Source of the DNA: Cyanidioschyzon merolae
Taxonomy: Eukaryota
Length of the DNA stretch: 64,000 nt
Assembly: GCA_000091205.1 (NCBI GenBank)
Contig: AP006483.2
Reading direction: 5' to 3' (one strand)
Shown piece by piece: positions 6,731 to 64,000 of this stretch. Each line of letters starts with the position of its first letter. Within the stretch, counting starts at the first letter, position 1. The notes below the pieces were generated by a model. That model was not told the origin of the DNA and made no database searches. It saw only the letters and a program-made list of their open reading frames with translations. Made by a program: the position numbers and the translations under genes.

Positions 6731-8063
6731 GGTGCCAGTAGCTGTCCCTGCTCGGCGTACCGCGGTACGCCGATCCTCATCACCAGGCCTTTACAGTCGC
6801 TCGAAATGCAGGGTGCCTGGCGGGTGAGGCAGGTGCCTCGCAGCAACGTACCAGTTTGGTTGGCTTTTGTCGTGAGCCCGCCGAGGGACTGGGCTTGAGC
6901 GCTTAACCGACCGCAGGTGATGGCGTTGCGGACGCAGCGCAGCTGTGAAACCCGTACGCCACTGTAAACGCTACACCGTATCCGTGTCCCCGGAAAACAC
7001 TTGTGTGGTGTCTCTCGACCTGTGAGGCGTCCTCCAGCGGAACCGTGTTCTCAAACGGTTCGGCGTTGCGCATGGCGAACACGCTAGTGTCGCTCCAGTG
7101 GATGCAGCTGCGCGACAACGCGCTTCCAGAGCCGTTCGCGAAGCGTTACCCCCGTTTTTTATGAATGTGCAGTTTTCGTCTCACGAATAGACATGGGCAG
7201 CGAACTGAGAGCTTTCACGATATTCCGGCTTTCCGCTAGAGAGTTTCCTCGGAAACCTGCAGATAAATAATGCACCATCGAAACACCTTTCTTGAATCAG
7301 GGATCGTTTACACCCGTCAAGTTCCCCGATCGTGCACCAGCATTCACCAGCCAGGCAGCAGAGCATCCTCCAATCCCGAAGCAGACCTCCGAGTTCCAAG
7401 ATTGCCACTGCCACAACCGCCCCCCAGACTCGTATTCGAAGTCCATGGTCTGTTCATATGATCACTTGAGCGCCAACTGGCAGTGACGCGCACCCTTTTT
7501 CATGTCCGTAGCTCTGCACCAAACACATCACGGAAATAGAGTTGCTGCTGTATGCAATCTTCGAGGGCATGCTCTCAACGCATCTACGGCGGCGGATGTG
7601 CGTGTCGAATCGCCCGAGTGGACACGCAGGCGATCGTTCAGCGCTGTGACTGCCGAGCCCCGGTGCTCGCAATGACGAACAGCGCGTACAGTCGGGCATT
7701 CTAGTGTATGTCTCGATGTGCTGTGAAACGAACAGCACACCATTCCGCACAGGGCTTACCATCGTCGATTCTGGAGTTCGTGCAAACGCTCCGCGACACC
7801 AATGAATCATGGAATCCCGCGCCGGGCGTGCAGCAGGCGGCACGCATGGCTGCAGCGCTGCCCGCAACCGGCGATGCCGCTGATCGCGCCTCGAGGCAGC
7901 GGTGGCAGATCGCGCGAGCCGCCCGCCCTGCACAAACGTCGCCGCTCTGGCTGGCGCACGGGCCACTGGCGATAAACAATGCGAATTTTGCCGGCGACTA
8001 GAACTCCTGGTGTGTAGCGGCTGCGTTCGGTCCGCCCAGCTATCGCCGGAAACAGTGTTGAAC

Positions 8064-9602
8064 ATGACTCGAGGAAGGGTGACTCTTGAACTTTTGAAGG
8101 ATGAGAAAGCGAGAAATACGACTTTTTCGAAGCGGAAGAACGGATTATTTAAAAAAGTTCTGGAGCTGAGCGTGCTCTGCGACTGTGAGATCGGCATTGT
8201 GATTTTTAACCACAACGGGAAGCTAGTGGAGTACAGCAGCAAAGGTGAAGATAGTCTTGTTGACTTGATTAGACGATGGGGAGCGTACACAGGCACCGTT
8301 GAGTCGAAAAGCAACCTCACGGCACTGCAGCCTGCAGCTGGGCGCTACGAGCAGCTGTGTCCCCGCTGGAACGTGCACCCGGTGCGTTCGGAGGTCGAAC
8401 CTGCTCGCGTCGCTCGGAGCGAGGGTTCCCCACGAGCGCCTAGACTCAGGCCTCGTTATTCTTCGAAAAATAATGACGTGGTCAGCGCCGGTGAACCAGG
8501 CAACCAACCAGATTCACGTTCTTCGACACAGGACGTGCTTGTACCTAGTATGGCGAACGATGACCAGTTTGTTGAGTGTGAGTCTCTTAGAAAGATGTGT
8601 GCCGAGGCAGATATGATGCAGGACCTGCGGCGTCAGTATGAACGATATCGGGAACGGATCCTGCGTTGGTCGGGCAAGCGCCGGCGTGGTGCGCAGTCGA
8701 CCGAGCACACCACATGTAGCGGTAAACGCTGCCATATCGAGAGCGGGGACGATGACTCGTCGAGGTTCCCGTCTGCAGACCTGGTCGATTTGCTGAAAAG
8801 TGAAGATACCCGGCCTTCGGGGGCAGCAACGGAGGAAACTGGATCCCCAGCTTCCCGGAAGAAGCGCTTTCGGCCAGAGGCGCTGTCGATCGAGGTGGAT
8901 CCGCTGGGTATGGCCTTCAGCGGCGCGAATAATGAGAAACAATCGACTGGCACCTGGGATCAGACCGCTCTTCGACCGGGTTTCTTCGCGTCCGACGAGA
9001 CTTTACGCAACCAGACGCCATCGGTAACGTTTCCAGAAGCAAGCACCAGCGGCAGAGGACCGGTTCTTGAGGCACCGTTCTCCGGCCAATTGTATCCTTC
9101 GGCGGGCGTTGGGAGCCAGCTTTCACCGCGGCTCTCGTACCGCTCGCTTGTGTCGTCATATCCAATTCTGGTTCCATCACCTGCAGGATTGCCTTCTACA
9201 ACAGGCTTGGGCGTCCCTGGTGTGATGATACCCACACCAACTGGAGCCAGTACGAGGCATGTGCCTGGTTGCCCTCAGGGAGGCGCAGGCACTGGCGCCG
9301 CCACAGCCACCGGAACAGAAACCGGAGGACCGCCATCCCATCCGCGTACGCAGCCGGCGATGTTGAGTCCAACAGCGCTCATTTTCGAGCAAATGGGACT
9401 CGCTACTCCACGGGAGTCAGCCTCTTGGGGCGGCTACAATGGGACCTGGTTTTCGTTTGTTGGTACTGGTTCTACTCCGCGGATGGGCGCTTATATGGAG
9501 CGCGCCACTGGAACAGGAAATCAGAGCACCTCTCCGTCGCAACCATTCTCGGCATCCAACGATGCGGAAAAGAATGCTCTCGATAGCCCGGCTGGGACGT
9601 AG
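8064..9602 (+). CDS. MADS-box transcription factor of the SRF/MEF2 type, with a long Ser/Pro/Gly-rich C-terminal region
   Basis: The N-terminus MTRGRVTLELLKDEKARNTTFSKRKNGLFKKVLELSVLCDCEIGIVIFNHNGKLVEYSS matches the MADS domain consensus (R-x-KI...R-x-VTFSKRK-G-L-KKA-ELSVLCD-EI-L-IF). I placed the start at the Met immediately before the MADS box (8064), which lies inside a longer ORF beginning at 7902. Confidence 0.82.
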   Translation: MTRGRVTLELLKDEKARNTTFSKRKNGLFKKVLELSVLCDCEIGIVIFNHNGKLVEYSSKGEDSLVDLIRRWGAYTGTVESKSNLTALQPAAGRYEQLCPRWNVHPVRSEVEPARVARSEGSPRAPRLRPRYSSKNNDVVSAGEPGNQPDSRSSTQDVLVPSMANDDQFVECESLRKMCAEADMMQDLRRQYERYRERILRWSGKRRRGAQSTEHTTCSGKRCHIESGDDDSSRFPSADLVDLLKSEDTRPSGAATEETGSPASRKKRFRPEALSIEVDPLGMAFSGANNEKQSTGTWDQTALRPGFFASDETLRNQTPSVTFPEASTSGRGPVLEAPFSGQLYPSAGVGSQLSPRLSYRSLVSSYPILVPSPAGLPSTTGLGVPGVMIPTPTGASTRHVPGCPQGGAGTGAATATGTETGGPPSHPRTQPAMLSPTALIFEQMGLATPRESASWGGYNGTWFSFVGTGSTPRMGAYMERATGTGNQSTSPSQPFSASNDAEKNALDSPAGT

Positions 9603-10287: not shown

Positions 10288-11655
10288 CTTACACTCGTGT
10301 ACGAATGGAATGGGACAGGTGCCCGATCAAGGCCGTATACGCGGTAAAGATTTGGTCTCTTTCCGTTGCCATCAACACCAGCGTTTCCGGGGGGGTTTCC
10401 TGTGACTCGTTTCGTCTGCTCCCTCGTACCTCGGGTTTTCAATGCACTGGTCGTTCCGGTCTCTCAAGCGCTATCGCTAGCAGTCAAGGATGTTGAGAGC
10501 GGCGTGAAGGTTCAGATCTCGCCGCTTCTCACTGTTATCGACACAGTTGGTATACCTGCGGTAGCTGCGATCTTCGCTTCGCATGCCGCTTTCATCTTGT
10601 CTATATACAGTCGCGGTATGCGCTTCGCAGCGGTGGCGCCTGGCCTGGTTCAGGCGCTCTGATACGTCGAGCAAGCCGCTTACTCCGCGAGCCGGCTGGT
10701 GGCTCGTGAACGCCTGCTTTATCGCTCGCTAGGCGCCCGGGACGCGTAGCGAAGAGTCCCGCTGATGCCCGCCTGCGATGCAGCGCCCGGTGGGGTACCT
10801 CTTGCGACCAGAAGCTTCTCGTGAGCGATCGCTTTCGAGCATGCACTGTTTGCTGCACAGGTAAGCGCGCGCGCTTCCATTCGGTAGAGCGTTTGTGGCA
10901 CGTGGTGTTGTTCCCGGTAAGCGAAAGCCGGACTCCTAGTCTAGGCAGGGGAACAAGCCGAGATACTCCGATCCGACTACACACGCCTCGTGCGAACCGG
11001 AGACGCGCTCTCCACGGGGAACCTTCGCTGCGCTGACCCGAATCCTGGTCCAAGACTCTTTGCGCTTCGAACGCGCAAGTCACGGGATCCTCGGTCAGCA
11101 TGCGCCATGCGAGGTATCATGCTGGTGTCGAATGGCAATTCGTTGAAGGGTCTAAGAATCAGAGGGCTTGCGCTTCGAGTGGAATCGATTATTAGGGAGA
11201 GGAATGCTCGGCGGACACTTGGCGTGAGCTCGTGAAAATGCCTGCAGAGGAGCGTGTCGAGTATTTTTCGGCACCAGTACAGCGGCAAGAAAGGCTGTGT
11301 CCAGTCGTTGCCTTGAAACAGGAAGAAGGGAAACGTGAGGCATGCTCTATGTGAGCGATCTACGCGCAAGCCAGTAGAAGAATCGAGGCCAATGCGCTTG
11401 TACTGTTCAATGATATTGGACGTTTGACGAACGCTTGCTCGAAAGCGCGGTGGACCATGCTGATTCAGGTACTGTGAAAAATTGCAGATGCACGGGGTCG
11501 AAAGAGGCACTCGGAAACCTCCGCCGCTAATCCTAGAAAACCGTTTGAATTTGTCGGGCGCAATTGTTGCACTCCGAATGCGGAGGCTGTACATCGGGAA
11601 GAAGATGTTTGGAAAACGTCGAAGGGCACGAACACAGCGAGCAGTTCAGTATTCC
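10288..11655 (+). repeat. Palindrome 1, left arm. It is a ~1.37 kb non-coding repeat unit lying in forward orientation.
   Basis: It is the reverse complement of 15004-16378 at ~99% identity. Mirror-image ORF pairs in the six-frame track show this directly: the 166-aa ORF 10601..11101(-) matches 15558..16058(+) with one substitution, and the 205-aa ORF 10977..11594(-) matches 15149..15682(+). The inner end terminates ...GAACACAGCGAGCAGTTCAGTATTCC. Confidence 0.9.
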
Positions 11656-12457
11656 ATATGATTCGTCCACAGATGTAGGGAAGTGTTGCACGTGTCGCAG
11701 AAACAGCATGCACACCGTAGCATCGCCCACGGGTCAGCGTCTTCGTCGCCCTGGCACCGAACAACCCCGGCTCTCTTGATATGACAGAGGCAACCACGAA
11801 GGCATTTCATGACCGCCATTGCCACTGCGAGCGTACCAGTTGCAACCGCGACTATGCGCGTGTGCTTCGAGCGAGTCCGTCTAGGTCACCGCCGGCACGA
11901 TAGCTCTCAACGAGCTATTGTGCGGAAACCTCGTGGCAACGAGAAAAGCTCTGCCCTGAATTGTGTTTCGGCAGACACATTATTTTCCTCATTTATGTAT
12001 TTTTGTCTAGTCTCAATCATTTCCAAATGCAGGAAAGTAGACAGGTAGAAGTGTCGTCACTTCCAGTGCATATCACCTGGAGGAGTTCGCTCGACGCTGC
12101 GCGAATCAGTGAATGTGCTCGAGAGCACATGACTCCTTCATGTGACCATCTGCAATGCCGAGCGTGTCTCACGAACGTGTGTCCATTCGATGCCATGCAA
12201 CCCGGTGCGCCTGCACGTATTCTACATGAACCCGGCATTGCATGTTTTTCATTTTGAAATAGAAGCATCCACCTAGAAAACGAATCCTCATCTATGTCAG
12301 GAGAATAGTTCGGGAAACTAGCATTCTTTCTTATCAGCAAGCGATTTTGTCATGCTGCTTGGGATTCGGCTGGAACAAGGCACCGGCGACGACGCAGCAA
12401 TGCTGCTGGAAAACGGCCACCATAAAGATTTCCGTATAAACGGGAGCTCGGAGAAGC

Positions 12458-13639
12458 TTGAGGGGCGCGTCTCTGCAACTGTGCGGAACCATGGGAACGG
12501 ATGATAGCGATACCCTTACAAGTGACGTTCAGTATCAAAAGCCGCAATCAGCAGTGATTCCGAACGGTACAGAACCAGCTGACGCTGACACTCAACTCTC
12601 TGCCTCGTCGAAAGAGGAAGCACTATGGAGGGCGAACGTGTTACGGCCGAGCAGAGATCTGGAGCTACTGCGGAGCGCTCCTTCTGTACAGGGTCCCGAC
12701 TTTAACACAGTCAATAGTGCAGATGATGTGGTGAAATCCTTTGCAACGATAGGATTCCAGGCTACTCAGTTCGCACGCGCAGTTGACGTTGTTCAACAGA
12801 TGCTCCGTGACGAGCGCGGTTGTGTCATTTTTTTGGCGTACACTTCAAACCTCGTCAGTAGTGGTGTTCGTGACGTGATCCGGTACCTCGTGCAACACCG
12901 CATGGTCGACGTCCTTGTGACAACAGCAGGAGGTGTCGAGGAGGACCTCATCAAGGTTCTGGCTCCGACCCTCATCGGCGACTTTCGCTTGCCTGGGGCA
13001 TTGCTGCGAGAGAACGGCCTCAACAGGATAGGCAATTTGCTTGTACCCAATGCGAATTACTGTCTTTTTGAGGACTGGCTCATGCCACTGCTTGACAAGA
13101 TAGTTGATGAAAGACGAATATGGACGCCCAGCGAGTTCATCCATCGCCTCGGCCAGGAGATACAACACGAGTCGAGTATCGCCACCTGGGCTGCACGGAA
13201 CGGAGTGCCGTATTTCTGCCCAGCGATTACGGATGGCTCGCTCGGTGATATGCTCTTCTACCATACATATCGGAATGAAACTCCACTCATCCTAGACGTT
13301 GTCGGCGATATCCGGAAACTGAATCGACTCGCGATTCACGCCAAATGCACGGCGATGATCATCCTCGGTGGCGGTGTCGCAAAGCACCACACCTGCAACG
13401 CAAACTTAATGCGCAACGGAGCTGACTATGCCATCTACATTAATACTGGTCAAGAATATGACGGAAGCGACAGTGGTGCCGCTCCAGACGAGGCTGTGAG
13501 CTGGGGCAAAATCCGCGGCTCCGCTGAAGCGATCAAAGTTTTCGGTGATGCATCGATATTGTTTCCGCTCCTGGTATCACAGACGTTTTGCAAGGTGCCC
13601 AGGCAACATCGACCGGACTTTGATGAAATCTCGGGGTAG
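12458..13639 (+). CDS. DHS: Deoxyhypusine synthase, the enzyme that hypusinates eIF5A
   Basis: A 393-aa intronless ORF with hallmark DHS segments [61 protein letters not shown] and [10 protein letters not shown]. An alternative start Met lies at 12491. The gene sits in the 3.35 kb unique spacer between the palindrome-1 arms. Confidence 0.93.
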
Positions 13640-15003
13640 TGGGCCTCGAAGGGTGTCCGTTTAGATCATGCAGGGTCAACGTGCACATCTGCGTCGCATG
13701 GGAATGCCGTGGAATGCGGCATGGATTGCGGGAACACCGGCCCTGTTCTCGCGCTTTGCACTATTCATGTCTTCGCATTGTCCTAGGAGCTACAATGCTA
13801 GGTTAGATTTTTTCGATCTTTACGAGAAAAACTCTGTCTCTGAAAGGCACGACGGCAGCATGGTTCGTGAAAGTGATGAATGCCGCAACGCAGCTCCGAT
13901 TTCCAGTCTAAAGCAGAGAGACCGGTGGAATCTGGTCCTGTCCACGGTGACTTTGTGCCAGTCAGTGCATAGTATTCACATCGACGCTTTCACAAACATG
14001 AAGGGCATCATTTTTGCTCGGTCTGGGTCATACCAATGACGCATTACGGAGCGCATCGCACTCTGCGTCAGCGTCGGAGCTGTACTTGGCTGCAGCGATT
14101 GATTGCCTCGTGACTCGCCTGGACTGGCTCCTGTTGCCACATTCGGTCTCAGTGGAAGATTCTCGGAACGCCCCAGGCGTTTTGTGTGTAGTGCGAGGTC
14201 CGGTTTGCCATGCGAGAGGACGTCTCGGAAGGAGACGCCTATGCGCAGCAGCTGCCCCAGGGTGATGCCGTTCTTAAGAATACCGTTGGGAGTTCTCGAC
14301 GCTGGCCCCAGCGTATTCGACTTCAAGCATCGTCAATTAGGCAGCATATGTGTGGCAGATGAGCATATACCCTGGAATGGAACTCGTTTTCAGCGACGTA
14401 CGATTGCGTATGGGGAGATGAGCACAACCGGACCCAGCCTGGTCGCGATCTAGAGTGCACTCGAAGTGTTCCAGCACAGCGGTTCACCAGCATGCTTGCG
14501 TTGGATAACCAGGCGATTGGAACTGTTCGTTAAACATGATGGACCATGTGTGCTATGGGTATTACAACCGTAAAAAGCGTCTGAGTTTCGAACCGAACCG
14601 GAGCGACCGCAGCTGTCAGGATCCCGTCCAAAAGTTGGCCGGATACGGCCCAAGGGAGAGCACCCCGCTGTGCTGCACATCCCACAAGCGGACACTCTTC
14701 AAAGGGCAGTGTAACCGGTGGGTCTATGGAGACTGACCGCGGTGGCGACGCACTCAACTTTGCAACGAGTGCGTATAGTAGGCCGTCCGGCCTCTGGCTT
14801 CTTGGACCATGCTTCTGTTCCTGGGAGAGCTCTCTCTGGGAGTTGGCGCAAAGCGATAGCATCTCGTGAATAGAAGTATTTCCATGCGTTATCGCAGCAA
14901 GCGCCCGTATATCTATGGATCCTGGTTAGCGTGTTGCACTCTGTTGGGATAAAAACTTCTCATACAACATGCAGGGCAAACTCTAGTCTTGTCGGATAGG
15001 GAC

Positions 15004-16378
15004 GGAATACTGAACTGCTCGCTGTGTTCGTGCCCTTCGACGTTTTCCAAACATCTTCTTCCCGACGTACAGCCTCCGCATTCGGAGTGCAACAATTGCG
15101 CCCGACAAATTCAAACGGATATCTAGGATTAGCGGCGGAGGTTTCCGAGTGCCTCTTTCGACCCCGTGCATCTGCAATTTTTCACAGTACCTGAATCAGC
15201 ATGGTCCACCGCGCTTTCGAGCAAGCGTTCGTCAAACGTCCAATATCATTGAACAGTACAAGCGCATTGGCCTCGATTCTTCTACTGGCTTGCGCGTAGA
15301 TCGCTCACATAGAGCATGCCTCACGTTTCCCTTCTTCCTGTTTCAAGGCAACGACTGGACACAGCCTTTCTTGCCGCTGTACTGGTGCCGAAAAATACTC
15401 GACACGCTCCTCTGCAGGCATTTTCACGAGCTCACGCCAAGTGTCCGCCGAGCATTCCTCTCCCTAATAATCGATTCCACTCGAAGCGCAAGCCCTCTGA
15501 TTCTTAGACCCTTCAACGAATTGCCATTCGACACCAGCATGATACCTCGCATGGCGCATGCTGACCGAGGATCCCGTGACTTGCGCGTTCGAAGCGCAAA
15601 GAGTCTTGGACCAGGATTCGGGTCAGCGCAGCGAAGGTTCCCCGTGGAGAGCGCGTCTCCGGTTCGCACGAGGCGTGTGTAGTCGGATCGGAGTATCTCG
15701 GCTTGTTCCCCTGCCTAGACTAGGAGTCCGGCTTTCGCTTACCGGGAACAACACCACGTGCCACAAACGCTCTACCGAATGGAAGCGCGCGCGCTTACCT
15801 GTGCAGCAAACAGTGCATGCTCGAAAGCGATCGCTCACGAGAAGCTTCTGGTCGCAAGAGGTACCCCACCGGGCGCTGCATCGCAGGCGGGCATCAGCGG
15901 GACTCTTCGCTACGCGTCCCGGGCGCCTAGCGAGCGATAAAGCAGGCGTTCACGAGCCACCAGCCGGCTCGCGGAGTGAGCGGCTTGCTCGACGTATCAG
16001 AGCGCCTGAACCAGGCCAGGCGCCACCGCTGCGAAGCGCATACCGCGACTGTATATAGACAAGATGAAAGCGGCATGCGAAGCGAAGATCGCAGCTACCG
16101 CAGGTATACCAACTGTGTCGATAACAGTGAGAAGCGGCGAGATCTGAACCTTTACGCCGCTCTCAACATCCTTGACTGCTAGCGATAGCGCTTGAGAGAC
16201 CGGAACGACCAGTGCATTGAAAACCCGAGGTACGAGGGAGCAGACGAAACGAGTCACAGGAAACCCCCCCGGAAACGCTGGTGTTGATGGCAACGGAAAG
16301 AGACCAAATCTTTACCGCGTATACGGCCTTGATCGGGCACCTGTCCCATTTCATTCGTACACGAGTGTAGCGCTGTAC
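15004..16378 (-). repeat. Palindrome 1, right arm. It is an inverted copy of the 10288-11655 unit.
   Basis: Its reverse complement matches the left arm over the full length. It begins GGAATACTGAACTGCTCGCTGTGTTCG, which is the reverse complement of the left-arm terminus. Identity is lost exactly at 15003/15004 and at about 16378. The outer end abuts the stop of the minus-strand gene that ends at 16399. Confidence 0.9.
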
Positions 16379-16398: not shown

Positions 16399-17925
16399 TT
16401 ATGCTCGCACGCGGTCCACGCGAGTAGGCTGTACAGTTCTCATGAAAGATTTCGGTAAAGCTTCCCGAATTCCAGGGACCGCAGGCGTTATGGCGTCAAA
16501 GAGAATCCCTTCGCGATGCGCAACAAGATACCCAGCGGCTTCTGCATAGCTGCGAACCCAGAGAACCCATGGCGCCTCATCTGAGGCCACGCGCTGGTGG
16601 CGAGTCAAAGCTCCATCATCGCGTACCTCTAGGACGTTCACGGGAAAGTCCCAGGGAGACCCATTCAGGCAGGTCGTGTTCTCTTTGACTGCAACGACAA
16701 GCTTGCCGCGTTGAAGCGTTGCCTGCACTGCGGGACTGCTTAAAGCATTGCTGGGCGTCACCAATGCCGCTACCTCATCTATCCAGAGTGCATATGTGCT
16801 CTTTTCGCGCTCTACTTCATCTTTCAAAATGAGGCGAGGCGCACGTGCTAAACCAGCAAGTACGCAGGGCAGGAAGGTATGGCCGAGTTCCTCTGCTGCG
16901 GCCTTGGGGTTGCAACGCTCGGCGCTGAAATGCAACTCGTTTAGCGCCGGCGCATGAGCGCAGGGTACTTTCAACGCCGTCGTAACCGTACGCGACAGTG
17001 CAGCCTCCGCGCCAGCAATGGGATCCACCCCCTTCCCTTGACGATATCGTTCGAGCATTTCTCCTGCGTTCGCGATCATATCTGGGGGAAAGTAGCAGAT
17101 AATTGCCAGCGCATCGCAGTTGTGGGGCGGTTCGAGTAAGCTCGCCGCCGCTTCAATGAGCGTCCCGGGAGCGTCCACCACGCCATAGCTGGATCCATCG
17201 TCGTGCAGGCCGCATCGGAACCTTACGGGTTCCCGCGTGACGGTATAGGCGGTTACCTGAATACCCAAGGTAGCCCGAGCGGCGTCACAGACCTGGAGGT
17301 GGCGCTCTAGGAGCGTCGACGGCACCGCTCTATCAAACACGACGCCAATCCGATTCGCAGTACCGCGCTGCGGCATGAGCCCCCAGAGGCCTTCACAGAA
17401 CCTATCCAGGGCGTATCCTTCAACGTAGAGCGCATTCGGAACCGCCCAGTAGAGCATGGCTCCGTTCAGTACGTTTGGATGGGTCACGAGCGTATCGCAG
17501 ACGCCCGCGAGTAGTCGACAGGCGGGTAACGCGTCACCGGCAAAGCCACCGATCCTAGCAGCGGTTCCGGTCGGCACGATCATGACGGCATTGTAACCGT
17601 CAAAGCTGCAGAGCAGACGGCGCGCTGTAGTGTCCCGGCACTGGCGGGGCGCGAGGCACCACGGTTGTTTGCTTTTCGGGGCAGCAACGAAGGCGTTTCG
17701 GTTGCTTTTTCCCGACCGAGACGACGCGAAATTGAGTGCGCTGCGAATACTAGCCACACCTGTTTGGACCGATAGTGCCCTTATTCTATGACAGCTCCCG
17801 ACGACGCCACAGTCACTACTCAATGACGCGTTCCAGCGTTCAGATCCAGCGAGAGATCGTACCCCGTTGTTCACGACTGCCGTCGAAACGAAGGCGCCCT
17901 GTCCCGCGGCAGCGAAACGTACCAT
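16399..17925 (-). CDS. Conserved hypothetical protein, possibly DUF3326-like. I recognise the motif MIVPTGTAARIGGFAGDA from a cyanobacterial/plastid-lineage family, but only from memory.
   Basis: A 508-aa uninterrupted ORF with a GC-rich codon pattern. It shows no match to the other enzymes I could recall. The domain assignment is tentative, although the ORF is very likely real given its length and composition. Confidence 0.6.
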   Translation of the reverse strand: MVRFAAAGQGAFVSTAVVNNGVRSLAGSERWNASLSSDCGVVGSCHRIRALSVQTGVASIRSALNFASSRSGKSNRNAFVAAPKSKQPWCLAPRQCRDTTARRLLCSFDGYNAVMIVPTGTAARIGGFAGDALPACRLLAGVCDTLVTHPNVLNGAMLYWAVPNALYVEGYALDRFCEGLWGLMPQRGTANRIGVVFDRAVPSTLLERHLQVCDAARATLGIQVTAYTVTREPVRFRCGLHDDGSSYGVVDAPGTLIEAAASLLEPPHNCDALAIICYFPPDMIANAGEMLERYRQGKGVDPIAGAEAALSRTVTTALKVPCAHAPALNELHFSAERCNPKAAAEELGHTFLPCVLAGLARAPRLILKDEVEREKSTYALWIDEVAALVTPSNALSSPAVQATLQRGKLVVAVKENTTCLNGSPWDFPVNVLEVRDDGALTRHQRVASDEAPWVLWVRSYAEAAGYLVAHREGILFDAITPAVPGIREALPKSFMRTVQPTRVDRVRA

Positions 17926-20736: not shown

Positions 20737-23700
20737 ACCTCGTACCTAATGGAATCGGAGCTGAACCATTCTGCTATCTGGAAGCGTACGTGACGCCAAT
20801 AAGCGCTTTGCTTTGAAAACAAATACAAATCAGTATACGAGCCTCCTGGAAAACTTGTTTTTTGAATTCGGTCGGATTGGCGGAAGCAGGATTGACGGAT
20901 ACCTGGCTCGGCGGAAGCGCTACGTCCGTGCGCTCTGCGCGTTGCGTGTACTCAGTAGTAGTATCGAAGAACAGAGCACCATTTTTGTTCACCAATCACT
21001 CAGGAAATCTGTTACCCGTGTACATAGATGGCGCGTCAGACTTACTGGATTGACGAAGCGTACCAAAGCGCAGCCTAGCTCGAGGCGGGAATCTCATGCT
21101 CTCCCGCCTATCCACTGATTCTTTTTCATCGAAAATCCGTAACGTCTCTGCACGATACCCGCATTGACTAGTGGACGATTCCAATAAAATTTCGCTCGAC
21201 GCAAACCCGCGACACGCTCCCGATGCATGAAGCATTCCAAGATATCGATCATGGCATCGAAGACTTGGCGCGAAGAACGGGTTTCCGCGCATAGTTGCTG
21301 GTGGAATCACACCAAAGCAAGCCGCTTATCTTCGAATGACTCGGGATCTGACGTCGGGTCAGCGTAGCACATACCACCTCGTAGATGCGGATCTGCTTCA
21401 CGCACTTCTTCTGTGTCTGGTTCACCGTGCAACGCTGCTCGTGACGCGTATACTTTGTCCAAAAGTCATCCATGGGGAAAGTATAGAAGCCATTCCTGGA
21501 CTCGATGTATGCATTCGTTCAGGGAGCAAGCATGCGGCATCTCCGCGGAACAGAATGTCCAGCGTCATAGGCCAGAACCGAGTTACGCGGCTTCTCAGGC
21601 ATTTGCTTTCCAAACTCATTGAAGAAGCTCGCAAATGCACGCGTCTTGGATCGGTGCAACCATACCCGTTGGCGAGCACAGCGAGGTCCGGTACACTCCT
21701 GCCGAAAATCGTTTGAATGAGCCAATTGAACGCTAATGTGCTCTGCGGATACAGCGTCGAAAACATCCCGTTCTATTCGAAAACGTGTTGAGAGAGCGTC
21801 AAGATAGGTCCTGATGCCGTCCTTCTCCGAGCGGGAATGGCTGCTGACGCCGAGCATGCTCGAGTCGCTAAGACCCGGAGCCATGGACAAGTTGAGCAGC
21901 TTCCGTGACATTCCATTCAAAAGCTCCGGGAATGCCGTCTTGATTCGGTAGCGTGGTGACGGCCGAGGTGTTGTTACGCCCGCGATCCACGCCCAACACG
22001 ACATGTTTATCTTTATGTACCTTGAACGGTTGAAAAGGGTTGCGTTGCCGGGCTCATGTCGAGCTCTCCCTAGTTTCAGTAAGTGCATACTCATTGACAA
22101 GTCCTCTTTCTACATGGTTCCTGTGAATTGCTTTCCATTGGCCCCGTGTTAACGAGAACGCTCGATGAGCCCCGCCAGTGCACTTCGCAAAGTCGTTCGA
22201 TTGCTTCGTTGTTGCTCGCAGAGCCCAGCGATAGCTCACCGTTCAGGCCATCGTGGACAATACTCCAGCGTTTATGATGCTAGACTGGGACTTGCTTTGG
22301 CATAAAGAGACTACATCGACCTGAAGCGCATGGGGGCAATGTCGCTCGCATTCGCAGAATGATGCCGCTCTGCCCTGAGCGACTCTGTTCAGGAGCGCGT
22401 ACCGGCACAATACGCAAGCACATCGGGCATTACGTTCGAATCATGCTTTGGATACGACATTGGTCGGCCCGAGTCCGGGCGCAACCCGAAGGGTTTCCAG
22501 CATCTTACGCGACGCCTGCTCTCTCTGTGTGATATCGCTTCGGAGTACGCGAACATCACGAGCTCTTCCACATCAGCATCAACACCACCAGCACCTCGCT
22601 GGCCGCCTTCGACATCCCAAGATTCCCTTGCTTCAGTTCCGAGTTTTCGGGCAAGAATGGCGTGCGTACACCGGCCACAGCCTGTGCTTCATGAAGCGCT
22701 TGACATTGACCCTGCATCTGAGTTTTGAGATTGGTCGTCTACTCGCTGGCACAAGCGCTGTCGACTTTTCTCGATCCCCAGAGTGGGCACGGCAGGCCAG
22801 CAGGGCGCGCTGGCAAGCTGGTTTAGCACCTTTCTGATCCAATGGTCAGGCTATGCTGCATCTTGGGTGCCCGGGGCATCAAGTACGTTGGCACACGAGG
22901 GTTCCATTGAAAAATTCCAGAGCATTGTAGGCACCTAGCTGGATTGCGTGCAGATTCCCCACGAACCGTTGCTTGACGAGCAGCGTGCATGCGAGTGGAG
23001 CTCGGCGAGTGCCCGTCTACAGCGAAGCTTTAGGATCCCTAATGACTTGGTGCACCGTTCTTTGTGGAAGATGCTCATCGAAGATCTGTTCGAGTCGCGA
23101 GGCCTTGGCAACGGTTCCAGATTGATCGGGTCGCTTCGACACTTTTTTCATTCCTGTCCGACCTGATCTTCTTTGGTGAGGATATTTCCATTCCGTTTTT
23201 CGTGTTGTGGTACTTCCTCTCGTCCACAGCGCTGCATAGCATAGATATGGACGCCACATGCCATCGTTTTCATTTCCGGGACTCAGATGCACTGGCTGGA
23301 CAATGAGACCCCAAATCGCATGCTCTACGTATGCCTATTCTATTCCTCAGGTGCATTGTCGTCATCGGCTTTGGTACGAGCACGCTCAGCGACCGAGGCG
23401 AGCCATTCTGGTTCCTCGCACTCACGACTGGACAAGCAATACTGCAGTTCAGGGCTGGGAAAGACCGAAAGCGATTTATCGAGGAACGTCATGTCGCAGA
23501 TGCGAACGACTTGTCCATGAATCCATCATCGTGAAAATGGCGTACAGCATCATATAAAACGCTTCCGAATGCATACGATAAGAAACGCAAGTTGCGACAA
23601 AGAGCAGCTGAACGCCAATCTCGGTTGCGTACTCCTGGACGACTTTTGAGTATTGAAAAGCAAACTTATCTGAAAGCTGGTCACATGAATGCGGTAACGA

Positions 23701-28204: not shown

Positions 28205-28814
28205 GTCGAACGAGTCGACTGAGTGCCAGCGCTCTGGGCCCGAGTCCTTTGACGGAGCATCATTGCTTTGAATCTGAGCGGGTCCTGATTCCAAACACGC
28301 GGTTTGCAGGAAACCCGGGCTTCCGTCGTACGACGGCGGGTGAACTCGCTGCATCTGAGCATCTGTTGACACCATCGTGCAGATCATTGGGGAATCATGT
28401 GATGAACGCGGTCAGCCGATGAACGCAGTTTCCTTTTCGTTCGCCGGGGTGTGCCTCGAGCATTTCCTCTGTGACCCGGAGGCGAGACTGCGTACGGACT
28501 GGGATTTCGCAACACACACAGAGGCCTGGAGGCCTCGTCTCGATATGCCCCAACGAATCGCTCAATGGTGCTGTTGGCGGGAATGGATGCTAGCGCGGCA
28601 GTTGGACAAGCGAGCAGCGTGCTATCTCCCAGACGTAATCACGAAACCAGTTGGACGTCCCGGATATCCAGATGCCAGTTCCGAATGCATCAACCAAAGG
28701 TTCTGTCTTCGTCTGGAACGCGAAGCGGCATCGGGACATACGCTCAAACAGCGTGGAGTGTAACGCAGTGGCCTGCAAACGCGCGCTTCTGCACCTGCGC
28801 TCCAGCGCAAGTCC

Positions 28815-29243
28815 ACGTGAGCACTAACCCGAAGTTTCAGATGTATGGTCATCTCCGGACGAGCGTGTACGCTTGATGCGAAGCTTTGGATCAGGAACAG
28901 AGTGCGCTTCGCTCGTCTACAGTGGTACAAGTGAGACTCGCGGAACACATCGGAGTCCACGTGAGCACTAACCAGAAGTTTCAGATGCATAGTCATCTCC
29001 GGACGAGCGTGTACGCTTGATGCGAAGCTTTGGATCAGGAACAGAGTGCGCTTCGCTCGTCTACAGTGGTACAAGTGAGACTCGCGGAACACATCGGAGT
29101 CCACGTGAGCACTAACCCGAAGTTTCAGATGTATGGTCATCTCCGGACGAGCGTGTACGCTTGATGCGAAGCTTTGGATCAGGAACAGAGTGCGCTTCGC
29201 TCGTCTACAGTGGTACAAGTGAGACTCGCGGAACACATCGGAG
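28815..29243. repeat. Tandem satellite of a 143-144 bp unit, about 3 copies
   Basis: The unit CACGTGAGCACTAACC(C/A)GAAGTTTCAGATG(T/C)ATGGTCATCTCCGGACGAGCGTGTACGCTTGATGCGAAGCTTTGGATCAGGAACAGAGTGCGCTTCGCTCGTCTACAGTGGTACAAGTGAGACTCGCGGAACACATCGGAGTC recurs at 28815, 28958 and 29102. The antisense ORF 28622..29236 shows a three-fold internal protein repeat as a result. Confidence 0.9.
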
Positions 29244-35917: not shown

Positions 35918-37224
35918 TCGGGAGTACACACGAACGATTGGGATTCGTTCCGCTCGGGTGCCAACAGTGGCCTTTAAGGGGCCTTTATTCCACAAATGCT
36001 GTGTTCTCCTCTGTCTTGTATTTGGCTTTGCATACGCTGGTCTGCGACGCTCCTTCAGCTTCGTTATCAGCAGTCGATGGGTGTCGAAAGCGGCGTTCAA
36101 CGACCAATGTCGGTGCTTCCGCCTGTTGTCGACGCATTGCATGCAGGTGCACCAGTTACGATGCACACTTTGCTTGGCATTCTCGTCTCGTTTGAGCACG
36201 GCATCTGTGCACGCTTCGCACTGGTGGCACTCGACCGTCATTGGAGCTCCTCGAATGCTCACGAAACCTCCTTCTTCGAAGACGACCTCCAGGTGCGACG
36301 GGACTCGCTCCACCGCTCCTTAGGTGGCCCCGACGGGTATCGGGGGCTTCACGCGATAGACGTCTCCGTTTCCGCTGCTGAGGGATCCCGTCGACGATGT
36401 CGTTGTCCGCTGGACACTTGAGCGCGCGCTATTCCATTCGACAGAGTAATTGTGGAGCGCGATGCTTCATACGATGAAACAGGTGTCGAAGAGAATATCC
36501 AGGCAGCAGAGCAAATCCAGAGACTCAGATCCTTGTACGCTCCCTCTGTAGCGAGCGGTGACACACACTCCACTGACACCGGGCTCGCTGCGTAGACTCA
36601 GGTCCGAGTCCAGGGCCCTGTCCCCGTGAAAGCGGAACAGACGGGAGCCCCTGGAGACGTCTCTCATGCGTGGTACCATGCTGTTGTCGAATGCAGTTTC
36701 ATCGACAGCGGAGAAACCGAGCGTGATTTGATATTCGACCATGATCACTTACTCTAGGTGACATGTTCAGTGAATGTTCGACGTAGCGTCCTGAGGGAGC
36801 TTTCCAGAGTCGACGTCGAGCTTCTTTCCCTGGGAATCGAGCGACACGAATCGCAGCGCCCGCAAGTGCCCTTGAACCAGAGAGATCGGAAACTGTCAGC
36901 ATGCGTCATTGGCGCCTGCTCCACACGGGCAAAGGAAAAACCTGGAGGCCTCTGCATACGAACCGGATAATCATAGCGATTGGTGTACGAGCCCTGGTTC
37001 GAGTGCTTTGCGAATCACCTTGAGTCTGGTATCGTCACGAATGCCAGCGGTGAGCAGTCGATGCAGCCAGCTCGTGAGAACGACCGTGACACCTTTGACC
37101 ATTTACCAAACTCGTAAACTCTTATTACTGGACTTTGAATCTCGAGCCGGTGCACGTTGAGTTTGGAAACATCTAGAGTCAGGAACAAGCGAGCAGTTCA
37201 GGGCTCCGTATCTAGTCTGCTACA
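35918..37224 (+). repeat. Palindrome 2, left arm. It is a ~1.31 kb unit in forward orientation and belongs to the same repeat family as the palindrome-1 arms (~70% identity).
   Basis: It is the reverse complement of 43384-44698 at ~98.5-99% identity. The mirror ORF pairs are 36349..36579(-) with 44030..44260(+), 36467..36748(-) with 43861..44142(+), 36909..37160(+) with 43449..43700(-), and 35996..36421(+) with 44188..44613(-). The inner end terminates ...GTTTGGAAACATCTAGAGTCAGGAACAAGCGAGCAGTTCAGGGCTCC.... Confidence 0.9.
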
Positions 37225-37576
37225 TGTCAGCGCAGCATCCTTCTCAGGTGGGTGCAAGTGCCGGCTGCAGGCATACGGCGTATGCGTTACAGCTTCCGTG
37301 CCGTGCGCTCTATTCTTGAAGCGAATGGTATGCGCTATCTCTGTTCAGTGTCGTCTCTGATCTGGGCAGCTGCTGGATTCTAGTGCGGACGCCACAGAGC
37401 CTTGCACCGTACCCAGGCTGTTTCGCACTGGCGGAACTGCCGCTAGAGGAGGTGCTTGTTGGAGCGCGCGGCACTTGGGCCTCGCTTGCTGAACCTGCTG
37501 CAGCTGGAGTGCACTCGGTGACTCCGCAGCAGCAGCAACGTCAACAGCTGCAGATAGGCAACTACATCAGAAGGAA

Positions 37577-39451
37577 ATGAGCAGTTCCGTGCGCTATGGG
37601 GCACTGCGGACGCTCCAGGGCGTAGCGGCACGTGGTGCGCACACTGCTGCTTTTCGCCAACAGTGCGGCGACCGAGGATCGCTTCTACGTGCCCTGGGGA
37701 AGCGCGCTGAGGCACCCGTCGCACAAGGCTGTAAGCAAACACGCAACGATGCAGAGTCTTGGCCTCGAGGTCTCGCTCGTGGCCCCGGCCGGGCGTTCTT
37801 TAGCAACCACACCGGCTACCAGGACGCGTACCGACAGCAGCGTGCTTCCGAGGTCGCCGCCGCAGAGGAAAAGGAGATGCTGCTGCTGAGGAAGCTCAGA
37901 CTAAAACTTACGAGGCCGGTCTCGCAGGCAACCGGTCATACGCATCCACATCTCCTGGACATAGACCAGGTTACACCTGGTATTCCACTCGCGGAGTATC
38001 GAGCGCGACGACAAGCACTGGCAGCGCTCATGCCGCCACATTCGCTGCTCATTTTACCCGCTGCTCCAGAGCAGTTTTACTCAATGGACGTTCCACATCG
38101 CTACCGTCAACACACGGACTTTCTGTACTTTACGGGGTGTCTGGAACCGCAGGCTGCACTCGTGGTCTACAAACCGCGCTCTGCTGCCGTTGACGCCTCG
38201 GCCATCGAGCCGGGCCCTCAACCGGATGCACTGCAAGCTGAGTTTCTCCTCTTCGTCCGCGCGAGAGACGCATCCCGGGAGCTCTGGGATGGCCCCATGA
38301 TTGGCATTGAAGACGCTCCGGCAATGTTCGGCATTCCCAATGTGTACCCAGTGGAGCGCCTGGGCGCTCTCGTTGCCGAGATTATGCATGGTGGCGAGCC
38401 GACTCCGCCGTCACTCTTCTTTGACGCAAATGTGAATTCCGAGTTCACGAAACGTGTGGGTACCGCTCTGGCACCCGACAAGTCCATGGAATCCGCCGCC
38501 GGCGCCGCCTGGCAGTCTTTTGCGTCGCGTCTGTGTTCACCGGTGCCTCTGACGCAACCGCTGCGGTTGTTCAAGTCACCGAACGAGCTCGCATTGATGC
38601 GTCGTGCCGCTGCAGTTACAGCGGATGCATTTATCGACGCGATGCAGCGCACTAGCGCCGGACTTGGTGAATGGCAAATCGCTGCGCGCATGGCCTATAC
38701 CATGGGGTTTCGTGGCGGCCCCAGCGCTCGCCTTGCGTTCCCCATGGTGGTGGCATCGGGTCCACGAGCCTGCACGCTCCATTATACGGAGAACGCAGCG
38801 CTACTGCAAAAACACCACATGCTCATGGTCGACGCCGGCGTTGAACTGCATGGCTATTGCAGCGATATCTCTCGTTCGTGGCCTGTCGATGGCCGGTTCC
38901 GAGGAGCTGCCAAGACCCTCTACGATATGCTGCTGAGCATTCACGAGGCTTGCTTGAAGCTCGCGCGGGAGCAAACGCACCCATCGCATACCGCTGGTGA
39001 TGTCGCCGGTGAATGCCGAGCGCCAGCGGCCAGCCTGGAGCACCTTCACCGAGTCTGCGTTCGGATGATTGCGGAGAATCTGTATGAACTAGGGTTTTTC
39101 GGCCGACGACACCGGGTAGATGAGATCATCGAGCGCGGTCTCTACGGACGGTACTTTCCGCATGCGCTCGGGCACTATCTGGGCATGGATACACACGACA
39201 CTCATCAGTTGAGCAAGGCGATTCCGTTTCGAGCTGGCATGGTGATCACTGTGGAGCCCGGCGTATACGTCCCGGTGGCAGATGGTGATGCACCAGCAGC
39301 CTTTCGAGGTCTAGGCATGCGCATCGAGGACGACGTGGTGATTCGCCCGGGCGGAGCCGCCCCGGAAATCCTCTCCGCGGGGATTCCTCTGCAAGCGCGA
39401 GATATCGAGGCGGTTATGCGTGAGATAGCCACGACAAGCGCGCACTATTGA
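37577..39451 (+). CDS. Xaa-Pro aminopeptidase (M24B family, XPNPEP3/AMPP-like, probably organellar)
   Basis: An AMP_N region (PGIPLAEYRARRQALAALMP...HRYRQHTDFLYFTGCLEPQAALVV) is followed by the pita-bread metal ligands HGYCSDISRSWPVDGRF, HALGHYLGMDTHD, GMVITVEPGVY and GMRIEDDVV. The 624-aa ORF is intronless and sits in the 6.16 kb spacer of palindrome 2. Confidence 0.9.
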   Translation: MSSSVRYGALRTLQGVAARGAHTAAFRQQCGDRGSLLRALGKRAEAPVAQGCKQTRNDAESWPRGLARGPGRAFFSNHTGYQDAYRQQRASEVAAAEEKEMLLLRKLRLKLTRPVSQATGHTHPHLLDIDQVTPGIPLAEYRARRQALAALMPPHSLLILPAAPEQFYSMDVPHRYRQHTDFLYFTGCLEPQAALVVYKPRSAAVDASAIEPGPQPDALQAEFLLFVRARDASRELWDGPMIGIEDAPAMFGIPNVYPVERLGALVAEIMHGGEPTPPSLFFDANVNSEFTKRVGTALAPDKSMESAAGAAWQSFASRLCSPVPLTQPLRLFKSPNELALMRRAAAVTADAFIDAMQRTSAGLGEWQIAARMAYTMGFRGGPSARLAFPMVVASGPRACTLHYTENAALLQKHHMLMVDAGVELHGYCSDISRSWPVDGRFRGAAKTLYDMLLSIHEACLKLAREQTHPSHTAGDVAGECRAPAASLEHLHRVCVRMIAENLYELGFFGRRHRVDEIIERGLYGRYFPHALGHYLGMDTHDTHQLSKAIPFRAGMVITVEPGVYVPVADGDAPAAFRGLGMRIEDDVVIRPGGAAPEILSAGIPLQARDIEAVMREIATTSAHY

Positions 39452-42400
39452 AGCTAGTTTGGATCGCTCGGTAGACGCTCTTCTATCGAATGATGGAATA
39501 CTCCATGATTTTGGGCCAGTTGCTCAGGAAACGCCTAGTCGGTGTATGGATGCGGCGCTGGAGCCTTTCTTGTACGCTGAAACGTACCATACCGAGGCAT
39601 TGCCTGTGGCAAGCGTTCGATTCCACCTCTGCTGGCCGCTGCTATTTTTCCAACGGGATTCTGAGGTCACGTAGCACATTGCCCGCCCAGAGTACGAAGC
39701 GACGGTCTCGAAAGTTTGCTCTACAAAACGCTGCTCGACGCCCCGAATCCATGAGATACTTTTGAATGATGATCGAAGCGTTCAAGTCGGGGTGCAGAGC
39801 ATGCCAGCGCGCATCGTTGCTGGTGGAATCATACCGCACAGAGCCTCTGAACTTCGATTGTCTCGCCAACTGACGTTTGTTCCGTCGACCGTAAACTGTC
39901 TCGTGGACCCGTCTCTGTTTCATTGTTGTCTTCTCTGTGTGCCCCAGCATACATCCCGTGCTCGTGATACCTGTAGGTTATCCAGGACGCATCCAGGGGA
40001 ATCGTGCACAACCGATTCTTGCTATCGTTGGTCGCTCTCAGCCAGCAAGCAGGAGTGCACTTGCTGCGTGGACCAGGATGTATAGCGCAACGCGCGACTA
40101 GAAACCGACGTGACTTTTCGGCCAGTTGCTTTTTTTTAACGTACTGAATAAGTTGGTAGAGGCGCGCTTCCCGCCTCCGTTCATCCGAAATCGTTGGCGA
40201 TCGAAAGCGTGGTCTCGTGGATGCCTGCCAGGGATCCAGTGCATGAGCCATTGACAGGCTCATGGACTCTATTTGAGAAAAGTGTACAGTGCAGCTCGCT
40301 CTGCTCCGTATGTCGCTCAGAGCGTCGATACGGGTCCAGACGTCTTCACTAGACTTTTTGGTATGCCATCTGGTGTCTGTCGGGCCTGCTGCTCAATTGT
40401 ATCGAGCCCGGGAAGCGTCGAGTGGCCCCAGCTGCTCTCGGTTCACCTCTTTGACGCCGTCGTTTGGATTTGGAGGTACAGCGACGGAGAGGACGTTGTC
40501 CAGCCTGCGATCGAGTCCCATTGCAACGCGCTTATCTTCGATGAATTTGAACGGTTGAAAATGGGTATCGTTACGCGTCTAAGGTTGAGGGTTTCGCGCT
40601 CCTCATGAGGTGTATACTTATTGATATTCTCTCGCTCTTCATATTCCCTGCAAACTGCTTTCCATATTCTCCCTGGGAACAAGAAAATATGAATGTGCTC
40701 CGCCAATGCACTTCCAGAAGTTTAATGAATGCTCCTTGCAGTAAAGCATGATGTGCGGCGATGGAACGGGCCTTGAAAGGATCTCTGGAATAAAATCGAA
40801 GTCAAGCTTGATGAGGATCGGGCGCTCGGACTCGGGAATGCGTCTGCTTTGGCTATGGAGGGCTCTTCTTTAGATCTCTTTGCAATGTACGGCGCAAGGT
40901 GGGCGTCATGTTCCGAGCATCCTTTGGATATGACGCATCTCTCTGTGTGCGAGGCGGGACCGTACACTATGAGCTTGGACGAGGTGAGTCGACTCTCGCT
41001 CTGGTCGCAGCATGTGTTCAGAACTCGCTACCATCCCGAGCGCTTCTGGCACCACCAGCTCGACACTTGCCTCCGTCGACGCACCGCAAGTGCCTTGCAT
41101 CAGAGCCCACATTTTCGGACCAGGATTCTGAGGGTTCGAAGCTCACAGGATGCATCTCGTGAAGCGCTCGAGACTGAACCGCAATTAAGATCGGATGTTG
41201 AGGTTCGTTTGATACGTTTTCACAACGGCGTTGTAGATATACCGATCGACGACGTTTTGTGAAGACGCATCAGGTTTATTTGGGGAAAGCGTGTCCACAA
41301 AAACGCGGATCCTACGACCAAGCGCCTCTGCAGCTCCAGTACTGCGAAGCGGTTGTGTTGCCGCACTAGGGTTGAATCGAAAAATTTCAAAGGAATGTCG
41401 ACAGCGGGCAGCCCGGTTCCCCAAACTGAAAGGAACAGTTGCTTGATGAGGTCCGTCAACGCGACGGAGGCTAGAGAGGACTTGCTCGGGACGGAGGAGG
41501 AAGCGGCTTCGTCGATAGTTGTGTCGTGCATCTCCATTTTCGTGCACATTCTGTCTGTTGGGATGGTTTACTGCGGCGATCTTGGCCAACCTTCCTCACC
41601 GATGTATATCCGCTCTGACAGTTTCCTCTTCTTGGTTCACCTCGTCATGTATTCCGAACGATTTCTGGCTTGATTGTCCGTTTTTTTCTCGTAGTTCTTC
41701 TCTGGCATCTCCTGGACTCGGTGGGATGACATGCATGTGGGCGCGATACCCCATATCCACTTGTTCTTCGGGATTCAGACGTATTGGGTGAATGTTTGGA
41801 ACGCAGCTTGCTTTCTCCGTTGATGCGCGTACGGGTTTTCACCAAAACATTCTCGTCATCTTCAACGTCAAGAATACACCCATAGACCGAAGCATGCATC
41901 TCCGCTCCCTCGCAGGCGCGAGCAAAGAAGCAACAGCATCTTTCAGAGCAGGTGGAGTTCGAGCAAAACCCGCCAAACAACCTCGATGTCTCAAATGCGA
42001 ACGAATTTTCTATGGATCCCTGAGCGTACAACCGGCTTTTGACGATAGAAAAGGCTCGTTGGAATGAAGTCGACCCAGGGCGACAGGCTGATTCGAAGGC
42101 CAGCTCAACGCCAATGCCAGCTGCGAGCTCCTTGAAAGATTTCGAGTCGTGCAGAGAGATGCTGTCGAAGAGCAGGAAGTACGTAAACAGTACTCTGTCA
42201 CGAAGAATGCTTTGATCAAGGATGAGGCGCTGAAAGATGCTGTCTGTTCGGTGGTTCACTGGCGAATACACCACTGAATCGCCATCAGGGCGGTTGGTGT
42301 CGTGATTCTCGCTTGCCGCTTCCTTACGAACAGTTATTTGTTCGAGCTGAGAGCCCACATACAGGTCTAGACCGTTTCCGCCGAATCAGGTCTCATCGAG

Positions 42401-61135: not shown

Positions 61136-61179
<44 letters not shown>

Positions 61180-63569: not shown

Positions 63570-64000
63570 TAGTGAGGTTGTGTACGAAGCGAACCGCTGG
63601 AGTACGCAGTTACGCCCAAACTTGACCGGAGCCTCTGGCCCGCTTGCCCTGCTCTTATCCCGGTTCGCAGAAGCGTTCTCGCGTGCACAGCGTTGCCACC
63701 ACGTGGAGAATAGGAAACCGGAACGCTGAACAACTGGCTATGCGCTGCCTCGGGATTTGTTTTGCGAACTTGTTTTCCATGCAGAGTTTTGATATTCACA
63801 GTGAAGCTATAAGCGTTGACAGACTCATGCGTGGTTTGTGGATTCTCGGACGTCTTTTCGGAGTGGTTCATTCGACGGTTTGCTGTTGGAACGTGTGATG
63901 TCAACGGAATCAAGATGACTCGGTACGCTCTCGAGCACGGGTGCATGAGATAAGTGATTTGATTAAGCTGTTCATACTTGCAAGCCTCTATGATTCTCAT

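Follow-up and report, generated by a model that had tools for sequence, protein, structure and literature searches.

The inverted repeat at the deoxyhypusine synthase locus

We analyzed a stretch of 64,000 nucleotides (nt) from chromosome 1 of Cyanidioschyzon merolae reference strain 10D (contig AP006483.2 of assembly GCA_000091205.1; hereafter, the window), in which the gene for deoxyhypusine synthase (DHS) is enclosed by two long, nearly identical inverted repeats. The whole chromosome comprises 422,616 bp (PMC1955436). The inverted repeat (IR) pair bracketing DHS is denoted IR1, and a second inverted pair in the window, IR2. The DHS locus contains the following features.

8064–9602, plus strand: left flanking gene, MADS-box (SRF-TF) protein BAM78798 (Pfam, protein match; collinear with outgroups)
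10290–11655, plus strand: IR1 left arm, a full-length copy of a ~1.36-kb non-coding repeat (inverted-repeat comparison; nhmmer)
11656–15003, no strand: IR1 spacer, a segment inverted relative to outgroups (repeat comparison; outgroup synteny)
12491–13639, plus strand: DHS coding sequence, intact, 382 amino acids (aa) (PF01916, Pfam DS, E 7e-118)
15004–16369, minus strand: IR1 right arm, a second full-length copy, inverted (inverted-repeat comparison; nhmmer)
16399–17925, minus strand: right flanking gene, DUF3326 protein BAM78800 (Pfam, protein match; collinear with outgroups)

IR1 was delimited with a repeat finder, by base-by-base comparison and by BLASTN self-comparison, all three of which agreed. 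The two arms, each 1366 nt long, are 99.56% identical, with six substitutions (at 10308, 10506, 10681, 11538, 11540 and 11593) and no indels, and they enclose 3348 nt of unique DNA; chance cannot account for a repeat so long and so nearly identical. The left arm has its 5' end directed outward, to the MADS-box gene, and its 3' end directed to the spacer. An earlier reading of the DNA, made from the letters without database searches (the sequence-only reading), had described near-identical inverted arms around a unique spacer, a description that all three comparisons bear out. Its arm boundaries need correction: the left arm starts at 10290 rather than 10288 and the right arm ends at 16369 rather than 16378. 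The small indel that it reported near the inner end (AATCCTAGAAAACCG versus AATCCTAGATATCCG) is actually the pair of substitutions at 11538 and 11540, and the outer end of the right arm lies 30 nt, not ~20 bp, from the stop of the DUF3326 gene.

The DHS protein is identical to C. merolae 10D BAM78799.1 (XP_005535085.1), and its gene, which the sequence-only reading had correctly named as intact, single-copy and alone between the arms, is the sole supported gene in the spacer. On its promoter side, 835 nt of unique DNA separate the gene from the left arm. The accessions BAM78798, BAM78799 and BAM78800 are consecutive, which suggests that the annotation places no protein in the arms; Pfam searches likewise detected no protein family there. 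Rfam searches (gathering and E-value thresholds) and ARAGORN found no RNA genes in the window or the arm. Open reading frames (ORFs) in the arms were considered as candidate coding sequences and ruled out: none has a Pfam match, the longest (190/205 aa) is frameshifted between strains, and across the copies of the repeat family described below there is no consistent reading frame, TBLASTX matches switching both frame and strand. The earlier view that the arms hold no recognizable protein is therefore upheld.

The 10D reference is a finished genome obtained by Sanger sequencing and from bacterial artificial chromosome (BAC) clones (PMC1955436), and the structure of IR1 recurs in independent data. 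The arm formed a separate contig in 10 independent sequencing-run assemblies, as expected of a two-copy repeat node, and 7 of the 10 stand-alone arm contigs had the exact 10290–11655 span (1364–1366 nt). Metagenome contigs that approach the arms from the spacer or from either flanking gene mostly end at, or within ~130 nt of, the arm ends. The metagenome strains carrying IR1 differ from 10D by ~0.5–1%, so that the structure is evidently common to natural populations.

The arms are whole copies of a dispersed non-coding repeat

In the BLASTN self-comparison, no similarity was detected between the arms of IR1 and those of IR2. The resulting view that the two pairs are unrelated was overturned by profile-type searches. 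All four arms carry a 14-mer, AGCGAGCAGTTCAG, near their inner ends, and exact copies are confined to these sites; allowing up to 2 mismatches, there are 6 matches in place of the 0.76 expected, a number reached in 0 of 100 shuffles. The motif has weak hairpin potential. This shared 14-mer led to an nhmmer search that revealed homology over the full length of the arms. Searching with an IR1 arm alone, positions 3–1362 and 5–1362 aligned to the two IR2 arms (E 2e-64 and 5e-66), positions 15–1365 aligned to a lone copy at 57891–59250 (E 6e-71), and a copy cut by the window end was matched at 63721–63997 (E 7e-8). A profile built from a three-copy alignment (72% mean column identity) matched exactly six places in the window, namely, the IR1 pair, the IR2 pair, the lone copy and the cut copy, the last now with E 1e-26. 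The family members beyond the IR1 arms, the terminal motifs and the gene enclosed by IR2 are listed below.

11636–11649, plus strand: conserved 3'-terminal motif AGCGAGCAGTTCAG in the IR1 left arm, 6 nt from its inner end (exact match; alignment)
15010–15023, minus strand: the same 3'-terminal motif in the IR1 right arm (exact match)
35918–37227, plus strand: IR2 left arm, same family, ~60% identical to the IR1 arms (repeat finder, BLASTN, nhmmer)
37577–39451, plus strand: Xaa-Pro aminopeptidase gene in the IR2 spacer, at the same site as in the sister lineage and Cyanidiococcus but reversed
43381–44691, minus strand: IR2 right arm (repeat finder, BLASTN, nhmmer)
57891–59250, plus strand: lone diverged full-length copy (nhmmer with an IR1 arm, E 6e-71)
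63721–64000, minus strand: 3' part of a further diverged copy, cut by the window end (family profile, E 1e-26)

Each IR1 arm is thus one whole copy of a dispersed non-coding repeat of ~1.36 kb: the ends of the arms and the ends of family homology coincide to within ≤15 nt at the 5' side and ≤4 nt at the 3' side. The sequence-only reading had missed that the arms are not unique DNA and that each is a full-length member of a family that includes the arms of the second palindrome and the lone copy. The family covers ~11% of the window, and copies at different loci are ~60% identical to one another. IR2, located ~20 kb from IR1, is the sole further large inverted repeat in the window; its arms are 98.6% identical to each other and are separated by a 6153-nt spacer.

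In the termini of the family copies that were inspected, neither terminal inverted or direct repeats nor Helitron-type ends were visible, and no target-site duplication, whether direct or split-inverted, was found at the IR1 and IR2 junctions. The flanks of the IR1 unit, ...ATGCCGCT and GCGCTGTA..., have no direct repeat in common, the repeat itself encodes no Pfam domains, and no transposase is present in the unit. An ordinary transposon had been expected to appear as solo dispersed insertions with target-site duplications; a solo copy does exist, at 57891–59250, but no target-site duplications or transposase were found. The divergence between loci (~60% identity), together with the lack of coding capacity, gives the family an old and inactive appearance.

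The family profile had 0 matches in 157 kb of outgroup loci, which also contained no inverted repeats. This absence fits the reported contrast in total repeat content, 12.7% of the genome in C. merolae versus 0.59% in Cyanidiococcus (PMC9812998), a count that may include this family. Direct comparison of the arm with outgroup intergenic DNA (BLASTN, TBLASTX and the nhmmer profile) likewise yielded no match, a result of little weight given that unique intergenic DNA is equally unalignable. Judging from these comparisons, the family appears to be lineage-specific, that is, restricted to Cyanidioschyzon.

The copies at 57891 and 63721 are inverted relative to each other, with their 3' ends facing, and bracket the long ORFs 59788–61629 (plus strand) and 62037–63569 (minus strand). 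BLASTN aligns them over a single stretch of 91 nt, at 74% identity. These two copies may be an old inverted pair that escaped homogenization.

Both spacers are inverted relative to related lineages

We compared the DHS locus with its counterparts in a sister lineage (GCA_041825655.1 and JGI metagenomes, L015–L019) in which DHS is 78% identical, in Cyanidiococcus yangmingshanensis (L066), and in a Cyanidium caldarium-like contig (ENA ERZ1300892, L020). In L015 and L066, the RecQ, MADS-box, DUF3326, Mob1 and kinase genes are collinear with the window, and DHS alone has the opposite sign. The Cyanidium-like contig has the convergent DHS/MADS-box arrangement in common with L015 and L066, such that DHS is reversed with respect to the MADS-box gene in comparison with 10D. 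None of the three relatives has an inverted repeat at the DHS locus. The opposite orientation of DHS in all three implies that the 10D orientation is derived.

The aminopeptidase gene in the IR2 spacer shows the same behavior, being reversed relative to its collinear flanks in the sister lineage (L047) and in Cyanidiococcus (L049), neither of which has an inverted repeat at this locus; the polarity of this change is defined by two outgroups only, which are possibly related to each other. Across the ~55 kb that were compared, DHS and the aminopeptidase gene are the sole orientation changes, and they coincide with the sole two large inverted repeats.

The distance from the MADS-box gene to the DUF3326 gene, minus both arms, is 4.07 kb, versus 4.03 kb in the sister lineage. 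This match hints that both arms are insertions, and it has little weight because the second locus has 3.9 kb of further extra DNA. The latter segment (39452–43380, ~3.9 kb of the IR2 spacer) is missing from the syntenic site of both the sister lineage and Cyanidiococcus, and it contains no Pfam-supported ORF calls in metagenome contigs. In the Cyanidium-like contig, the genes for the aminopeptidase, ribosomal protein S24e, Tmemb_14, Y_phosphatase2, DHS and the MADS-box protein all lie within 13 kb, which indicates that the region has been heavily rearranged between Cyanidium and Cyanidioschyzon.

Evidence of exchange between arms

Because site 10308 lies 18 nt inside the arm, any read that covers it also links it to the unique flank. 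The 10D reference has G at this site in the arm next to the MADS-box gene and A in the arm next to the DUF3326 gene. In contigs anchored in a flank, we counted A in nine and G in three on the MADS-box side, and G in seven and A in three on the DUF3326 side; thus, the same G/A polymorphism segregates in both arm copies. Six sequences that include both arm ends were compared over the inner 141 nt of the arm and form two haplotype groups. Within a sequence, the arms differ from each other at 0–3 sites; the haplotype groups differ at 3–7, with both arms carrying the variants of their own group. As far as can be judged from these contigs, this is the pattern of concerted evolution, in which the arms would recombine with each other.

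In the metagenome collection, every occurrence of a 26-mer from the arm was in one of the two known contexts, and no third near-identical copy of the arm was found. Intrachromosomal homologous recombination between short repeats has been shown to work experimentally in 10D (PMC13353863).

At IR2, family homology runs ~37–40 nt outside the 98.6% identical region in both copies, and these outer stretches differ from one another. They align in register with the family, with a score that is not significant when taken alone (p ~0.07). The outer stretches look like the edge of a conversion tract.

In one metagenome contig (L005), the inner 305 nt of the second arm (contig positions 8304–8608) differ from the contig's other arm at 10 sites, and several of these variants were present in no other contig examined. 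The differences could reflect real divergence of the arm, a chimera of strains or an error at the contig end.

Orientation in present-day populations

Four metagenome contigs cross an entire IR1 arm, two with the reference junction and two with the flipped one. The reference orientation is seen in L001, which runs from the MADS-box flank through the arm to the 5' side of DHS, and in L052, which runs from the DUF3326 flank through the arm to the 3' side of DHS. In L005 and L051, the DUF3326 flank is joined through the arm to the 5' side of DHS, that is, the orientation is of the ancestral type with the arms present. Among the contigs that cross an IR2 arm, L057 has the reference junction, and L056 and L058 have the flipped one. 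These counts are compatible with flip-flop inversion within C. merolae, and they are no proof of it, given that either assembly path through the repeat gives them. The flip-flop inversion envisaged in the sequence-only reading is substantiated in one part, the inversion of the DHS segment relative to three outgroups, and for its other part, the coexistence of both orientations within C. merolae, the source is short-read contigs. The stem-loop or cruciform that had also been envisaged is unlikely with a 3.3-kb spacer.

Origin of the inverted pairs

We consider it probable that IR1 is a pair of inverted repeats kept alike by gene conversion, and that the DHS segment was inverted by recombination between its arms. 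On this account, two copies of the old, non-coding ~1.36-kb repeat of Cyanidioschyzon would sit in inverted orientation in the intergenic regions on either side of DHS, where their length, proximity and near-identity would let them recombine with each other. Non-crossover exchange (gene conversion) would hold the pair at 99.6% identity, while copies at other loci would have drifted to ~60%, and crossover exchange would invert the 3.3-kb spacer. At least one such inversion is likely to have occurred in the 10D lineage, and IR2 would have done likewise to the aminopeptidase gene. Whichever way the segment points, DHS has the same 835 nt of unique upstream DNA and, beyond them, an identical arm, so that flipping should be nearly neutral for expression.

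Several observations weigh against this account or are not explained by it. 10D carries the derived orientation at both pairs, which a one-off event creating the pair together with the inversion would fit equally well or better. The route by which two copies of the same sub-lineage came to flank one gene is unexplained, and no target-site duplications were found. The near-identity of the IR2 arms extends ~24 nt beyond the 3' end of family homology, which independent insertions do not predict, and the inverted copies at 57891 and 63721 are diverged rather than homogenized. As for the contigs, metagenome assemblies can collapse variants and so inflate the similarity of arms within a contig, and where an inverted repeat exceeds the insert size, a short-read assembler may follow either of two paths across it. 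In addition, the shared polymorphism at 11593 is in a CpG context, making parallel mutation plausible.

The one-off alternative that fares best is duplicative inversion, in which a resident copy replicates or template-switches into a nearby site, creating an inverted second copy and inverting the DNA between the two in a single step. Such an outcome is known from intramolecular replicative transposition of bacterial elements; we know of no replicative nuclear DNA transposon of this kind in eukaryotes. The model accounts for the arms being full-length, with ends that coincide with the family ends, and for both near-identical pairs in the window bracketing a segment in the derived orientation; it also accommodates the absence of a third near-identical copy in our searches and the divergence of the copies at 57891 and 63721 from each other. 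The expected split target duplication is absent, however: at the IR1 and IR2 junctions, neither configuration of flanks and spacer ends matches. The old and inactive appearance of the family is likewise difficult to reconcile with such activity, and the outer ~37–40 nt of the IR2 arms, aligned with the family and yet mutually different, suggest two older copies that were homogenized later. We therefore regard duplicative inversion as unlikely.

Somewhat less probable still is a staggered-break inversion, in which nicks 1.37 kb apart, followed by fill-in and end joining, would have inverted DHS and duplicated the sequence between the nicks. This served as the working model after the outgroup comparison, given a segment that is inverted relative to outgroups and bordered by an inverted duplication absent from them, and it was downgraded when the arms were recognized as complete copies of a repeat. 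In Drosophila, duplications of this type accompany 17 of 29 inversions, reaching ~1.9 kb and often occurring at one breakpoint only (PMC1885836). The duplicated unit here, however, has both of its ends in common with a pre-existing dispersed repeat, a result that a random stagger would rarely produce and that would be needed twice in the window. Being a whole copy of a dispersed repeat, the duplicated sequence was probably not single-copy ancestrally (the outgroup intergenic DNA, which could show this directly, is unalignable), and the model does not predict polymorphisms common to both arms across strains. End joining is also the less natural route in C. merolae, which integrates DNA mainly by homologous recombination (methods of PMC13353863 and general background).

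That DHS is the cargo of a DNA transposon, either composite or with long terminal inverted repeats, is very improbable: a gene bracketed by 1.37-kb inverted repeats of a dispersed family does resemble such an element, but DHS lies between the same two neighbors in the sister lineage and Cyanidiococcus and beside the same MADS-box gene in the Cyanidium-like contig, the unit has no target-site duplication and no transposase anywhere, and the outer end of the arm occurs in two known contexts only. On the strength of conserved synteny, cargo transposition appears to be excluded.

The probability that IR1 is an assembly or chimeric-read fold-back is negligible. Near-identical inverted arms are a known failure pattern of some long-read assemblies, and nothing further was found in support of an artefact; it is contradicted by the finished Sanger/BAC source (PMC1955436), by the 3.3-kb unique spacer and the six arm differences, which a fold-back would not give, and by independent multi-sample assemblies with the same repeat node, ends and both flank junctions. 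IR1 is real.

Relation to known systems

IR1 belongs to a known kind of structure, the invertible segment flanked by concertedly evolving inverted repeats. The suggestion of the sequence-only reading that a housekeeping gene in this setting is unprecedented was accordingly overstated, because segments of this kind, flanked by inverted repeats, are well known. The closest likeness is to invertible segments mediated by non-allelic homologous recombination (NAHR), in which long similar inverted repeats flank a unique segment, both orientations are found in related genomes, and there are signs of exchange. The case described here differs in that the segment is a single 3.3-kb housekeeping-gene unit, the repeats are a lineage-specific non-coding interspersed element, and the opposite orientations are established between species only. 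The palindromes of primate Y chromosomes similarly combine near-identical arms, concerted evolution and a unique spacer. Their arms, however, measure tens of kilobases to megabases and contain genes, whereas those of IR1 are 1.4 kb long and gene-free, with the gene in the spacer.

Two further systems offer partial parallels. In bacteria, duplicative inversion by insertion sequences and transposons (IS/Tn) also leaves two complete inverted copies of an element bracketing an inverted segment, but IR1 lies in the nuclear genome of a eukaryote, its family appears old, and neither a split target duplication nor a transposase was found. The breakpoint duplications of Drosophila resemble IR1 in that an inversion relative to outgroups is flanked by an inverted duplication, ~1.4 kb long at IR1, that is absent ancestrally (Ranz et al. 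2007, PMC1885836). At IR1, however, the duplicated sequence is a complete dispersed repeat rather than ancestrally unique breakpoint DNA, only a single gene is inverted, and the arms show 99.6% identity, compared with ~88%.

In the literature searched, we found no description of these palindromes. Relative to that literature, the new elements are the role of the family in C. merolae, the exact coincidence of single-gene inversions with repeat pairs, and the possibly unstable orientation of an essential gene.

C. merolae serves as the "simplest" eukaryotic model genome and is described as having very few transposons. Against this background, it matters that ~11% of the window consists of one unclassified repeat family, and that the inverted pairs of this family match exactly the only two gene-orientation changes relative to sister taxa. 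A far-reaching extension, which we consider doubtful, is that inverted pairs of the ~1.36-kb family systematically make single-gene invertible cassettes genome-wide, subject to concerted evolution and repeated flips, and that they explain much of the intergenic expansion of C. merolae and of its small orientation changes relative to Cyanidiococcus; in a stronger version, each pair would be made in one step by a copy-and-invert mechanism undescribed for eukaryotic nuclear elements. If the pattern did prove to be genome-wide, it would account in part for the two-fold larger size of the intergenic regions in C. merolae and would provide a concrete mechanism of micro-inversion in a genome dominated by homologous recombination. 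Users of the reference would be warned that some gene orientations, including that of one essential gene, may vary between strains or within cultures. For gene targeting, homology arms placed within these repeats could recombine ectopically.

Other features of the window

Three further repeats were detected. A tandem repeat with a 144-nt period occupies 28810–29243 (3 copies, 98–100% identity), and another with a 70-nt period occupies 47010–47359 (~5 copies, 94–98% identity). A 69-nt direct similarity of 78% links 21286–21354 with 39808–39876, the latter within the IR2 spacer.

The models of both genes flanking IR1 vary in length. The DUF3326 protein is 508 aa long in the 10D annotation versus 568 aa in most metagenome calls, the sequences being near-identical, and the MADS-box protein is annotated with 512 aa versus a 566-aa ORF (7902–9602) that starts from an upstream GTG.

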